From the NCBI GenBank assembly GCA_951406725.2, contig OX597837.1, positions 23,808,001-23,872,000 on the forward strand: a stretch of 64,000 nt of DNA, read 5' to 3'. Source of the DNA: Octopus vulgaris (lineage: Eukaryota). Shown in pieces: positions 6,290-59,116 of the stretch. A model generated the notes under the pieces. The model had not been told where the DNA came from and did no database searches. It saw only the letters and a list, made by a program, of their open reading frames with translations. Each line of letters begins with the position of its first letter. Position 1 is the first letter of the stretch. The position numbers and the translations under genes were made by a program.

Positions 6290-6475
6290 TACAGAAAAAC
6301 AAAAGACATGACAGATACATAAACAACAAGCAGGTGTATTAGTTTCACACTCAGAGGAGAGTGTGAAAGTCTTTTATGTTTCGAGCTTATGCTCTTGAAC
6401 ACAAGGAAATAAACAAACAGAGTGAGAGAATAAAAATAACTTGTAGATTTAGTGATCAATCATGGCAACTGGTTG
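6290..6475 (-). mobile_element. Solo pLTR of a Neptune-type PLE (family G), degenerate
   Basis: Homologous to 20710-20950. Confidence 0.6.
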
Positions 6476-17728: not shown

Positions 17729-17989
17729 GTGGTTGTATACTATAAACTTAACGTGACAGTAGGGGATTACACCACTGCTGTTTAGCCCTAGGAAGCATTG
17801 ACGCTTCCTGTCGGTTTCTACACATTTCCTGTCCTTATATATTTACGAAGGGGAGACAAATACCCCTTCATAAATATATAAGGACACAGGAAATGTGTCG
17901 AAGCTGACAGGAAGTGTCTATACTTCCTAGGGCTAAACAGCGGTGGTGTAAACCCCTACTGTCACGTTAAGTTGACAGTATACAACCAC
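17729..17989. repeat. Near-perfect fold-back palindrome (MITE-like), arms about 125 bp
   Basis: GTGGTTGTATAC...GAAGGGG agacaaata CCCCTTC...GTATACAACCAC. Confidence 0.85.
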
Positions 17990-19262: not shown

Positions 19263-20950
19263 ATCACTATCTCCAACACCTCTGTCTCCTTCCTCGACAT
19301 TTCGGTTAGCATTCTTCACTCCACTCTTACCACCTCCATTCACTACAAACACACAGACTCACACTCATACCTCAACTTCTCTTCCTCCCACCCAGAACAC
19401 ACCAAGCTTTCCATCCCCTATTCCCAATTCCTCCGTCTACGTAGGCTCTGTAGTGACGACCATGACTTTGAGACTCAGTCTCAACGTATGGCTCACCACT
19501 TCATCCTACATGGATACCCCCTCACCACTATCCACACCGCCCTTGCCAGAGCACGTTCCGTGGACCGTGTATCTGCCTCTCTCCCCGAACCCGCCCTGTA
19601 GTCTCCCGCCTCCCTTTTCCCCTCACTTACCACCCCACGACCCTACCTCTCCAACGCACCATTCTTCAAGCTTTCCGTCATCTCCAGTCCGACCCGTCCA
19701 CTTCACACCTCTTCCCTAACCGACCCCTCCCCTCTTTCAAACGAGCCCATAACCTTCGAGACCTTTTGGTCCATAGCTCCTTCCCTGACCCTACCTCCCA
19801 ACCTGGCTCGTTCCCCTGCTCCCGCCCACGTTGCCACACTTGCCCTTACCTCTTCAACACCACCCTCCTCACTGGCACCCATCATTGACCCTATCGCATC
19901 ATCAACTCCTTCACCTGCACCTCCAGCAATATTATCTATTGCGCCTCTTGCTCTCTCTCTGCCATTCCCTGTACATCGGACAAACGGGACGCCACTTGGC
20001 TGACCGGTTCGCGGAACACCTTCGTGACATTCGCCTTGTGAACGACACACCGGTCTCATGCCATTTCCGCTCCACCGGTCACTCCTTGCAACACCTGTCT
20101 GTGTTCGGTTTGTCCTTACACAGAGGCCATCCAGATTCCCGTTTGCACCGTGAACAGGAATTAATCTTCTCTCTTCGCTCTTATACGCCATTTGGTCTCA
20201 ACTCTCCCCCTCCTCATCTAACCCCCCTCTTCCCCTCCTCATCTAACCTCCCCCGACCCCTACTTCTCTTCAGTCTTTCATCCTTTCACCCCTACTCCTC
20301 TTTCTCCCTCCCTCCTTCTTCCCTCTTCCCCTTCCCTCTGCTTCCTCACTCCCCTTCTCTCTCTCCCCCTCTCCCTCTATCCTCCCTCCTCCTCTCCTTC
20401 CTTCTCCCCCTTCCCCTTCCCTCTCCTCTTCTCCCCTTTCCTTCTCCCCTCTTCTCCCCCTCCCCATCCTCCTCCTCCCACCTCTTCTCCTCTCTCTACA
20501 CTACACCATACGACTTTACACATCACATCATATATACATACACACGTCCAGACCTCTCATACGCACTAATACTCTCTCATACACACACACACACTCTTCT
20601 CATACACATACACACACTCTTATGTTGGAGTGAGGTCATTCAACCCTATTATCTCCCCTAATTTCGCTCTTGCGTCTCATGTTTGATCTTTGACTTCTGG
20701 CCAAAATCAGATCGCCATGTTGATTCGCTAGCTTCTGCACGCATATTTTTTTCTCTCCTTCTTTCTGTGTTTTTTCTCAGTGTATCTTTCTGTTGAAGAG
20801 CGTAGGCTCGAAACGTTAAAGACTTGTTTTATTTATATTTCCTGAGCGCCATACTAATACAATTGTTTGTTTGTATTCCACCTGCCTTCGTCTTTTGTTT
20901 ATTTCCGTAAACCTGCCTTCGTCTTTTGTCTATTTTCATAAAGCTTCCCG
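19263..20950 (+). mobile_element. 5'-truncated Penelope-like element, Neptune type (RT C-terminus, Cys linker, GIY-YIG endonuclease, CT-rich tract, pLTR)
   Basis: FLDISV...HYKHTDSHSYLNFSSSHP...SIPYSQFLRLRRLCS; PCSRPRCHTC linker; TCTSSNIIYC...YIGQTGRHLADRFAEHLRDI...REQELIFSLRSYTPFGLN; frameshifts and stops; flanked by (TA)n. Confidence 0.9.
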
Positions 20951-20951
20951 T

Positions 20952-22437: not shown

Positions 22438-23714
22438 TTAGATTGTCAAGAAAGTTCTTGTGGTTTTTAACCTTTAAATTCAGATGCACATAGCTCAAAC
22501 AAAACTTTATTAATCGAAATAAGCACCATCAGAATCAGCACACTTTTGCCAATGCAAAACAAGTTTATTTATGCCAGTAGCATAAAAATCCTGTGTTCTG
22601 GTGGCAGTGAAGTCGTTGAAGACGTGTTTGGCATCATCTTGGGTTTTGAAGTATTTCTCATGCAGGAAGTTGTCGAGATGCTTGAAAAAGTAGTAGTCTG
22701 TAGGCGAGAGGTCTGGTGAGTTTGGCGGATGAAGGCAGAGTTTCGTAGCTGAATTTGTTCAACTTCTGCAGGGTCAGTTGTGCGACGTGCAGCCAAGCGT
22801 TGTCGTGGAGAAGAATTGGTCCTTTTCTTTTGACCAATGCTGGCTGTTGTTGTCGGAGTTTCTTATGCATTTCATCCATTTGCTGACAGTACTTCTCCGC
22901 CATAATGGTTTCGTCTGAATTCAATAAGCTGTGATGGATGAGACTGGCCACAGACCACCAAACAGTCACTATGACCTTGTTTTGATGCAACTTTGGCTTC
23001 ATGAAGTGCTGTGGAGCTTCTCCAGTGTCCAACCACTGAGCTGAGCATCACCGGTTGTCATAAAGAATTCACTTTTCATCACGTCACAATCCGGTCGAGA
23101 AACGGGTCATTCTTGTTGTGTAAATGAAGGGAAGACGACACTTCAGAACAGCGTTTTTTTTTGGTTGTCGTTCAATTCGGGCGGCACCATTTTTCAAATA
23201 TTTTTGTTTTTCGAATCTCTTTCAAGTGGTTGAAAATTGTCATGTACATTACGTCTAATTCAGAAGCAAGCTCTCGAAAGGTTGTGCTTGGATTGGCCTC
23301 AACTAAGGCTCTTAGTTGATTGTTGTCAACATCCGATGGCCGACCACTACACTTATCATCTTCAAGACTCTCAACACTGCTACGAAATTTCTTGAACCAC
23401 CATTGTGCTGTACGTTCATTAGTTGTTCCTGAGCCAAACACATCATTGGTATTGTGAGCTGTTTCAGCAGCTTTTAGGCATAGCTTGAACTGGAATAAGA
23501 AAATTTTGCGAATTTGCTTTTTGTCCATGTTGTATTCAACGTTCCAGAAAATATGGCCTAATTATTCAAAAAGAAAAAGAGTAACACAATTGGATAGAGC
23601 GCAAAATGGGCTTTAAAATGATATATAAAGTCAAAGTAATTTAACAAAAATATATTTGAAAATAATACATTTAAAACAAAAATATTATAATTCCGCAAGA
23701 ACTTTCTTGACAAC

Positions 23715-25534: not shown

Positions 25535-25725
25535 AAGGGGAGAGTTTACGAAAAAACAAAAGACGAAGACAGGTGGTGTACAAAACAAACAGATGTATTA
25601 GTATAATGCTCAGGAATAGAAAAAGTCTTTTACGTTTCGAGCCTACGTTCTTCTACAGAAAGGGACATAGAAAAAACAAGGAGAGAAAAAAAATGTGTGT
25701 AGTGGCTAACAATCTATCATGGCGA
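25535..25725 (-). mobile_element. Solo pLTR, family G
   Basis: Homologous to 20710-20950; next to (TA)n. Confidence 0.75.
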
Positions 25726-32662: not shown

Positions 32663-32931
32663 TTCCCTTCCTTGGACCTTTCTGTTTTCTATGTTTCTGA
32701 CGAAGAGCTCCGCTCTAAGCATTAAATCATCTTTCTTTCTTTCCTTTCCTGAGCATCCAATAACACTATACTTGTTCCACATCCTCACATTGTTGTGTTT
32801 TCACTTTGTTCATGTTTGGATTAACTATATATACATATATATATATAACAAAGTTGAGTTGTGGGGTATCGCACGAGTGGAATTATATACGAAATATATA
32901 TCTTTTAAATTGCATTTTCAAACCTTCTTTC

Positions 32932-33775: not shown

Positions 33776-35711
33776 ATCCTCCATCTGATTGTGCTCAAAT
33801 TTGATATGTAGATACCAACGATATCAGGGCGTGTATAAGTTTTGAAAAAATTACAAAAATCGATTCCAGGTGAGAATGCCATTGATTAAAGCCATTTTGT
33901 CCTGCTTTTCTTCTGTCAACCTGTACATAACTGCACCTTCCATTTTTTGTTGTTTTTGTACTGCTTAAAGGCACGTTTCTTTCCTGCCAAGCTTAATGTT
34001 TAAACCATGTTTTCGTTCTCCCAGTCAACAGCCCTATGATTACTGGTACTTTAAACTCTTCAGTTGCATATTTGTGTGAATAAAATCATTTTTCTTTGGA
34101 ATAGAAAAAAAGTCTATCTTTATTTCTTCTTTTGCTGGTGTCTCAAATTTAGGTTAAATCAGTGTTTCTCAAAGGGGAGGCCTATGGGACGGTCGAACAA
34201 GTTGTTTTGAGAAAATTTGGTTTAAATGTTTGACAACTCAGCACCATCCATTGGACGGGGAGCGTTTTGCTCGTAGACTTATAAAGCTGGTTTCCTGGAT
34301 TCTGAGGTGTATATATTCTCCTATTGGATGAAACACCGATCCATTGCAGGATTACTTATTTTTGTTAACTGAGGTGAACTGGAGTAGTGTGAAATGAAGT
34401 GTTTTGCTCAAGAACACAATACATCACCCAATCCAGGAATTGAAACCACAATCTTACAATCATGAGTACAACACAATAACCACTGAGCCACATGGCTCCA
34501 TAATGTTCTGAATGAAAAGAGATTTAATGTATTGGTATGTTCTCTGTGAACCAGTGTAGAACTGTGCTTCAACTCTTATCAGACCATTTTCACTTAAGTT
34601 ATTGTTAATATCATTGGAAAATGTATTAATGCCATGGCTTCTCATTCCTCCTAACCTATATTTGTACATTTGATGTATTGTTATATCCAAAACTAATACA
34701 CTTTTTCTCATTCTTTTTCTCTTCTTCAAACACACGTTCACATTCATGAATACATACACACATGCACATGTATATATATATATATCTATGTACCCCCTGG
34801 AGAAATCAAATACAGCTATATTCCAAACCTACATCCATTCTGGCAACTTGAAATAATCAATTTTGCTGATACATTCCATTCTGTGAAGTTCCGTAGCCTT
34901 TTCTGAGAGTGCATTGTTGCAAATTTTAGCCACCTTAGAATTACCATTTCTTATCAACAACACTGCTTCAATTTTATTTATTTATTCATTTTTATTTATG
35001 TTTCGAGTCTTGTCTTCAGTAGAAAAAGTGATAAAAGAAATAAGGAATGGCTCTTTAATTTGGTTGTCATAAATTTAGTCTTATTTCTCCCTGGCACTTC
35101 AGTGAAGCGTCTTGTTTTGCTTTTGTTTTAATAGTTTTGTTCATGAGGAAACTATTTCGTCACCTGTGGAATTTTCTACAGGAGAATAAGTTTAAATGTT
35201 TTACATATATGTTGGTAAGTGCTCTGTGTTGGTTGGTGTTCATCTGAGCAGTTATCTTGCATGGTTGTGTAATATGAAACTTGCTTCCCAAGCATGTTTT
35301 CGTGGGTTCCATCTCACTAAATGAAGTTTTGGGAAAGTATCTTCTACAACAACCTTGGGCCTACCAAAGCCTTGTGAGTAAGTTTGATAGGTGGAAACTG
35401 AAAGAAGTATATATCCCTACACATTTTAAAAAATTCTCTCTCCATTTTTCCCTCTCAGCCCTTTCTGTCGAAGAGCCCAGAGACTTTTCCATTCTTTCCT
35501 AGCATTAAACTAATACACCTGCTTATTTCTCCCTCACCTATCTTTGATTTTGTTTTCGTATATTTGAACTATATATATCATCATCATCATCACACACACA
35601 CAAACACAAGGTACATTCCTGAGGTTTTGAGACTTTTCAGGTCAGACATTATTCATTTCAAAGAAGTAATAAAACTCTAATCTCCTTCAAAATAAGATCT
35701 TCTAACACACA

Positions 35712-36671: not shown

Positions 36672-36843
36672 AGGGAGAGTTTATGAAAAAAACAAAAGAC
36701 GAAGACAGGTGGTGTACAAGACAAACAGATATATTAGTATAACACTGAGGAATAGAAAAAGTCTTTTATGTTTCGAGCCTATGCTCTTCTACAGTAAGGG
36801 ACACAGAAAAAAATGTGTAGTGGCTAATGATTTATCATGGCGA
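36672..36843 (-). mobile_element. Solo pLTR, family G
   Basis: Homologous to 25535-25725; (TA)n on both sides. Confidence 0.75.
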
Positions 36844-58627: not shown

Positions 58628-59116
58628 ATGTATATATGTAGGTGTGTATGTGTATATATATGTATGTATATATAATATATATGTATGTGTATATATATAT
58701 ATGTATGTATAATATATATATATATATATGCGTATATATGTATGTATATGTATATATGTATGTATATACATGTATATATATATATATGTGTATATATGTA
58801 TGTATATGTATATATAATATATACATGTGTATTTATATATGTATGTGTATATATAGATATATGTATGTGTATATATATAGATGTATGTATATATATATAT
58901 ATATGTGTGTCATGTTGAATCGCTAGCTTCTGCATGCATTTTTTTTCTCTCCTTGTTTCTCTCCGTGTTTCTTTTCTGTGTATCTTTCTGTTGAAGAGCG
59001 TAGGCTCGAAATGTAAAAGACTTGTTTCATTTATATTCCTGAGCGGCATACTAATACAATTGTTTGTTTGTACTCCACCTGCCTTCGTCTTTTGTTTATT
59101 TTCATAAAGCTTCCCG

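Follow-up and report, generated by a model that had tools for sequence, protein, structure and literature searches.

A fixed uridine at core position 6 in a candidate hammerhead motif of Neptune-type Penelope-like elements in Octopus vulgaris

The role of hammerheads in Penelope-like elements (PLEs) is puzzling: nearly all of these elements have one, cutting is poor, and insertion in vitro can do without it. A motif at positions 20785-20823 of a 64,000-nt stretch of the Octopus vulgaris genome (contig OX597837.1; hereafter the window) raises this question in a sharper form. It is laid out like a minimal hammerhead, with uridine in place of the conserved adenine at core position 6, and the original prediction was that a lineage with this core kept spreading, either active or repurposed. 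We asked what such a motif might be kept for.

The 39-mer lies at 20785-20823 exactly as first described, with C3 at 20790 and U6 at 20793, and it does lie inside the pLTR of a Neptune element; the pLTR is the 3' one, and the host was assigned as Neptune-type by linker spacing, compared by eye. The motif is of putative minimal type I hammerhead form, and the Neptune-type PLE whose 3' pLTR holds it is truncated. Numbering of the motif follows the hammerhead consensus given in PMC3088659, and its parts are as follows.

20785-20789 (+), stem I, 5' strand, pairing with 20818-20822.
20790-20797 (+), core C3-U4-G5-U6-U7-G8-A9 and an extra A before stem II.
20798-20809 (+), stem II of 4 bp with G10.1-C11.1 and a 4-nt loop (pair probability ~1.0 in the isolated motif).
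20810-20817 (+), G12-A13-A14-A15.1, palindromic CG, U16.1 and U17, with G12 at 20810 and U17 at 20817.
20818-20823 (+), stem I, 3' strand.

The cut is predicted between 20817 and 20818 (GUU triplet). The motif shares with PLE hammerheads a pLTR location flanking an ORF with RT and GIY-YIG, a stem I of 4-5 bp and a stem II closed by G10.1-C11.1 (both weaker in a wider folding context), one added nucleotide separating position 9 from 10.1, and a palindromic 15.2-16.2 without stem III. The hammerhead core C3 U4 G5, G8 A9, G12 A13 A14, A15.1, U16.1 and H17 was present in 8/8 U6 consensuses, and A6 was replaced by U6 in 8/8. An Rfam search with 20740-20870 gave 0 matches at E<=10, so no curated hammerhead covariance model fits this segment; a scan of the whole window gave microsatellite-driven matches only among the 150 of 297 listed. 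Downstream of the motif, 20843-20862 carries a GAGCG block followed by ACTAATACA. It is kept across U6 subfamilies and is also present in A6 families, and it could form an alternative fold by pairing with the 3' strand of stem II.

The host element and its coding remains were delimited as follows.

19265-20951 (+), 5'-truncated, frameshifted Neptune-type PLE (RT thumb, linker, GIY-YIG, 3' pLTR), inserted in (TA)n.
19817-19843 (+), C-x4-C-x2-C linker between RT and endonuclease, with the layout that Neptune rows have in PMC8557442's supplementary alignment.
19928-20202 (+), GIY-YIG endonuclease region (NIIY...YIGQT...R..EH...GLN), broken by frameshifts, recognized in translation.

The element has TA runs at both ends and is 91-94% identical to a full-length copy (L093). 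Compared by eye and without a tree, its linker spacing fits the Neptune rows and not the Nematis rows of the PMC8557442 supplement. Other Neptune features were the CX2-5CxxC linker and the long spacing before a C-terminal GIY-YIG, also compared by eye, as well as the (TA)n target bias and a tandem pLTR structure. Pfam recognized RVT_1 (E=1e-7) and GIY-YIG (E=0.005, below the curated cut-off) in an intact relative, and gave no match for the broken fragments of the window. The pLTR motif is preceded by a long pyrimidine tract, and a 31-nt tandem duplication near the 3' end of the element (20880-20941) is common to a sub-branch of the young family.

A protein search of the genome returned 10,521 candidates, and most of the 150 that were scored share one score. 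Twenty candidate loci were fetched, picked for long open frames or tandem layout, and every pLTR motif of their ORF-bearing elements was CTGTTGA with a GUU triplet. Nine of 18 extracted ORFs were open from Met through the endonuclease; these were nearly identical (mean pairwise difference 0.46%, some without any), so the family is very recent and, as predicted, kept spreading with U6. In these elements the motif lies ~750 nt upstream of the ATG, two motifs are 4.5 kb apart, and the 3' motif is ~130 nt from the element end.

Besides 20785-20823, the window holds five further U6 copies, variously decayed, and a single A6 sister-family copy.

58983-59021 (+), solo pLTR copy, U6-U7, GUA triplet with CpG decay.
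25625-25663 (-), older-subfamily copy, U6-A7, stem II broken.
36761-36799 (-), older-subfamily copy, U6-A7, decayed by CpG decay and a stem I change.
6369-6407 (-), strongly decayed U6 copy with 7 mismatches to the 39-mer, missing from the original prediction.
35461-35485 (+), U6-C7 copy lacking 14 nt across stem II and GAAAC.
32693-32729 (+), A6 sister-family copy, GAAAC decayed.

The first three of these had been named before and are real, all with U6. The copy placed near 35464 does carry U6-C7 (at 35465), but the 14 nt it has lost include the 3' strand of stem II together with GAAAC. Likewise, the copy near 32697 that had been called canonical does have A6, but its GAAAC is decayed and its family is mostly CCGACGA (U4C). 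In the U6-A7 subfamily of 25625-25663 and 36761-36799 (both minus strand), the core resembles a splice acceptor behind a long pyrimidine tract. Elsewhere in the window, 17729-17989 is a 260-bp near-palindromic element, ~87% self-complementary and possibly a MITE, and 22471-23047 (-) holds broken ORFs that we take to resemble a mariner-type transposase.

In a genome-wide search with positions 6 and 7 left free, 16,568 exact matches were found, compared with 0 for a reversed-pattern control; the 39-mer motif is therefore not a product of chance. A6 occurred in 184 of these matches (1.1%). With the 28-nt interior left free and the anchors placed outside it, position 6 was T in 98/100 among the matches listed (11,587 in total), and in older subfamilies, again with a free interior, in 93/100 among the matches listed (367 in total). 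All 61 matches of the oldest subfamily were read: position 6 was T in 47, A in 7, C in 6 and G in 1, two of the A6 copies being a duplicate pair. This excess of A6 hints that the switch to U6 may have taken place around that time. Contigs from four runs under other organism labels held no alternative base at position 6, nor at positions 7 and 17, which do vary, so these contigs say nothing about position 6. U6 is the master allele of the lineage, through eight successive subfamilies. The claim that U6 is lineage-wide thus agrees with the low share of A6 matches, and A6 was looked for in the consensus and in the youngest copies and was absent from both. An A6 ancestor with the same loop was also sought: the A6 copies of the oldest group had no clear common diagnostic sites, and genome-wide a large A6 family with this loop was not found, A6 matches of this kind numbering only 149.

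Constraint on the motif was examined in 169 non-identical near-complete copies, 150 of which were assigned by flank diagnostics and 19 left out. They comprise eight U6 subfamilies, with median copy divergence of 0.8-7.4%, and two A6 sister families. For a U6 subfamily represented in the set by just one copy, the consensus was built from 15 pattern-selected copies. On a flank-built tree of the eight consensuses, 64 of 138 flank sites had changed in 97 steps (0.70 steps per flank site), whereas change in the 28-nt motif interior was confined to N7, with 4 steps, and H17, with 2 steps and either A or U. The difference from the flanks was significant both for all 28 sites (Fisher p=8e-5) and for the other 26, which had 0 changes (p=9e-7), with the qualification that some flank variation is guaranteed by setting subfamilies on flank diagnostics and that the search anchors kept stem I constant. 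N7 and H17 are the degenerate positions of the consensus hammerhead core as given in PMC3088659, and the chance of the variable sites being exactly these two is 1 in 378. Position 7 took all four bases, and so varies as it does in true hammerheads, in line with the original prediction, as is the conservation of the stems above background, the interior being far steadier than the flanks. Because only N7 and H17 varied in the interior, we infer that the hammerhead fold was kept under selection after the A6U change. The unpaired core bases C3, G8, A9, G12, A13 and U16.1, which a plain hairpin does not need, were all kept. Loop II and the extra A were also invariant, which is not demanded by catalysis alone, and further short pLTR blocks were invariant too. 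A dead motif might in principle hitchhike with a successful master element under no selection, as the dispensability of cleavage for insertion in vitro (PMC11167929) would allow; the unchanged 26 sites largely refute this, and we regard it as extremely improbable.

Comparison with the A6 sister families bears on whether a fold or a linear sequence is conserved. Their flanks are 38-52% identical to those of the U6 families, yet stem II is identical, and it is kept with different loops between families. Stem I has C-G in the U6 families versus G-C in the A6 sisters, a single covariation event whose score is reached by 13/500 shuffles. The rest of the core is the same in both groups, and no compensating change accompanies U6. 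Conservation of the 36 nt might instead reflect a DNA element or a linear RNA element, such as a promoter part, a protein site or a splice acceptor, with the hammerhead as a relic. This would fit the promoters and introns described in the literature for pLTRs of other PLEs, the long pyrimidine tract ahead of the motif and the other invariant short pLTR blocks. The compensatory change in stem I, the retention of stem II under different loops and the four bases taken by position 7 argue against it, and we consider it very unlikely. Contigs from four presumed RNA runs were searched for youngest-subfamily sequence, and neither splice joints nor back joints were seen at the motif, so for this subfamily the splice-acceptor idea is unsupported; one contig reads through the motif.

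The genome holds further hammerhead-like families. The sister family of 32693-32729, which also occurs at loci L200-L219, reads CCGACGA (U4C) in 74/100 among the matches listed (11,970 in total). Being mostly U4C, it does not serve as a canonical control. Because CpG decay runs from C to T, C4 is a master allele of this family. PMC3088659 describes a U4C hammerhead that is slow in vitro and nonetheless suffices for a viroid. With A6U and U4C both fixed, two large lineages in this genome took different uridine-turn changes. In a third abundant repeat (L116, L126, L127, L129 and L037), the minimal hammerhead is canonical, with A6, its stem II is longer, and a tRNA-like B-box stretch lies ahead of it; the repeat is possibly a SINE-like or non-autonomous element. 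At ~1440-1640 of L042 lies a chimeric pLTR, in which the upstream part belongs to the A6 sister family and the loop and downstream part to an old U6 subfamily, which suggests that a template switch or a conversion occurred at the motif. Two further hammerhead-like motifs, each on its own, were seen on the minus strand of L155 and L168; they have A6, and a 4-nt spacer precedes their cleavage triplet.

Evidence of cutting was sought in the ends of genomic copies. Among the matches listed and as judged by eye, 39 loci were truncated between 7 nt before and 24 nt after the cut, of which 5 start clearly at the cut site and 2 ambiguously; three other TA-like positions had 5 starts each, so there is no excess at the cut site. 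In the A6 sister family, 2/43 copies start at the cut, again by eye among the matches listed, and this footprint does not separate U6 from A6. As no pile-up of copies starts at the cut site, cleaved RNA is rarely a template; thousands of copies run through the site, so in U6 and A6 families alike the template is usually uncut RNA. The PLE hammerhead of Anolis behaves comparably according to PMC11167929: it cuts only with the protein of the element, cutting is dispensable for insertion in vitro, and no RNA-seq ends were seen at the cut.

Folding predictions indicate what U6 may do. When the motif is folded in isolation, U6 is predicted to pair with A15.1, within a helix joining both core strands, and P(G5-C15.2) of this closed helix was 0.45-0.98 in U6 motifs versus <=0.11 in natural A6 copies. 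In a 150-nt context, the mean P of the closed helix was 0.16 over 63 U6 copies versus 0.0004 over 18 A6 copies; the mean P of stem I was 0.11, the upstream pyrimidine tract competing with it. The youngest subfamily, which adds U17 and U7, had the strongest predicted closure. An A6-C7 sister family has a closed fold of its own, so closure is not unique to U6. We treat the predicted closure of the monomer by U6-A15.1 pairing as a lead rather than a result.

No natural A6U hammerhead and no A6U rate were found in the literature searched, which did not extend to Lünse 2016, on variant PLE hammerheads, or to Cervera 2014's figure supplement, either of which may hold U6 cases. A search for "A6U" with hammerhead brought up only a twister paper. 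The nearest measured case is A6C. A natural A6C hammerhead has a kobs of <0.1/min, with one or two hydrogen bonds expected to be lost (PMC3088659), and A6C is far slower in Mg2+ and rescued by Mn2+, one ribozyme reaching 3.6e-6/min at 0.3 mM Mg2+ (PMC7151607). In the comprehensive mutagenesis of a type III hammerhead described in PMC9901934, every CUGA-turn mutant, whether single or double, was low, and only the C3/G8 swap rescued.

It would be surprising in this light if U6 were fully compensated by its context (the extra A, loop II contacts, Mn2+ or a protein) and the activity equalled that of A6 relatives. Eight subfamilies with tens of thousands of copies went without reversion, A6 being one change away, and Mn2+ rescues A6C (PMC7151607); against these stand the lack of second-site rescue in the pairwise mutagenesis reported in PMC9901934 and the sameness of all other core positions with those of the A6 sisters. 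We consider full compensation quite unlikely.

A motif that no longer cuts and whose hammerhead-shaped fold is a binding or folding signal for the protein of the element deserves more weight, and we give it a modest chance. It agrees with the near inactivity of CUGA-turn mutants (PMC9901934), the dispensability of cleavage for Anolis insertion in vitro (PMC11167929), the spread of Naiads without canonical hammerheads (PMC8557442), the missing cut-site footprint, a loop II as invariant as the core, and the fixation of U4C in a second large family. Less easily explained by such a signal are variable sites that are exactly N7 and H17, with position 17 never G in any consensus, and the catalytic bases G8 and G12, which are unchanged in all consensuses.

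On balance, we lean towards the motif being a slow, attenuated, probably protein-assisted dimeric ribozyme with U6. In this ribozyme, U6 would remove the A6 contacts and could pair with A15.1, so that a lone motif would fold shut as a hairpin. On a tandem transcript, two motifs at a distance of 4.5 kb could pair by way of the palindromic ACGU, and the share of transcripts cut would be small; PMC4209133 proposes hammerhead dimers for the motifs of PLEs. A cut in the 3' copy would strip the last ~130 nt, which every full 3' end copies, and would so destroy the template; weak cutting may therefore be tolerated or favoured. Slow cutting would leave most RNA usable as template, while the small cut share might serve processing, translation or turnover. 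A comparable balance was argued in PMC13725137 for viral 5'-UTR hammerheads driving translation. A broader and speculative proposal, which we think doubtful, is that PLEs tune hammerheads down through uridine-turn changes (A6U, U4C), with A6U as a switch that locks the monomer through A15.1 and is freed by the protein of the element or by dimerisation through the palindrome. If true, a hammerhead whose core counts as dead in mutagenesis would in nature be gated by protein, and would strike a balance between cut RNA and intact template.

The lineage amounts to a natural experiment, in which every catalytic base was kept for eight subfamilies while a change expected to cripple cutting was fixed. 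Comparing U6, A6 and G12A in one element would separate selected slow cutting from another function of the fold. For surveys of this genome, a CUGANGA descriptor passes over no fewer than 16,000 U6 matches, and over most of another 12,000 matches that belong to the sister family.

Among known systems, the closest are the minimal type I hammerheads of PLE pLTRs, which likewise lie in both pLTRs and have a stem I of 4-5 bp, an additional unpaired base ahead of stem II, G10.1-C11.1, no stem III, a palindromic 15.2-16.2 and predicted dimers. They differ in that U6 is fixed here, whereas the core variant named in the cited text on those motifs is U3-A8 only, and in that the Schistosoma stem II is given as 7-8 bp compared with 4 bp here. 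The Bcep176 A6C hammerhead (Perreault 2011, PMC3088659; Naghdi 2020, PMC7151607) shares a natural change at position 6 with the remaining core intact; it is a single, assayed phage ribozyme, whereas here A6U occurs in >16,000 copies of an animal retroelement. Poseidon PAc of Anolis (Frangieh 2024, PMC11167929) has in common a PLE pLTR hammerhead, uncut RNA as template and no ends at the cut site. For PAc, cutting with the help of protein was demonstrated and the motif overlaps the ORF start, whereas the present candidate motif carries U6, lies ~750 nt upstream of the ATG and belongs to a Neptune-type element. With the Neptune clade (Craig 2021, PMC8557442), the element shares the RT, the CX2-5CxxC linker spacing, the C-terminal GIY-YIG, (TA)n targets and partial tandems with pLTRs; its placement comes from linker comparison by eye, and it differs from the clade in its non-canonical hammerhead core.
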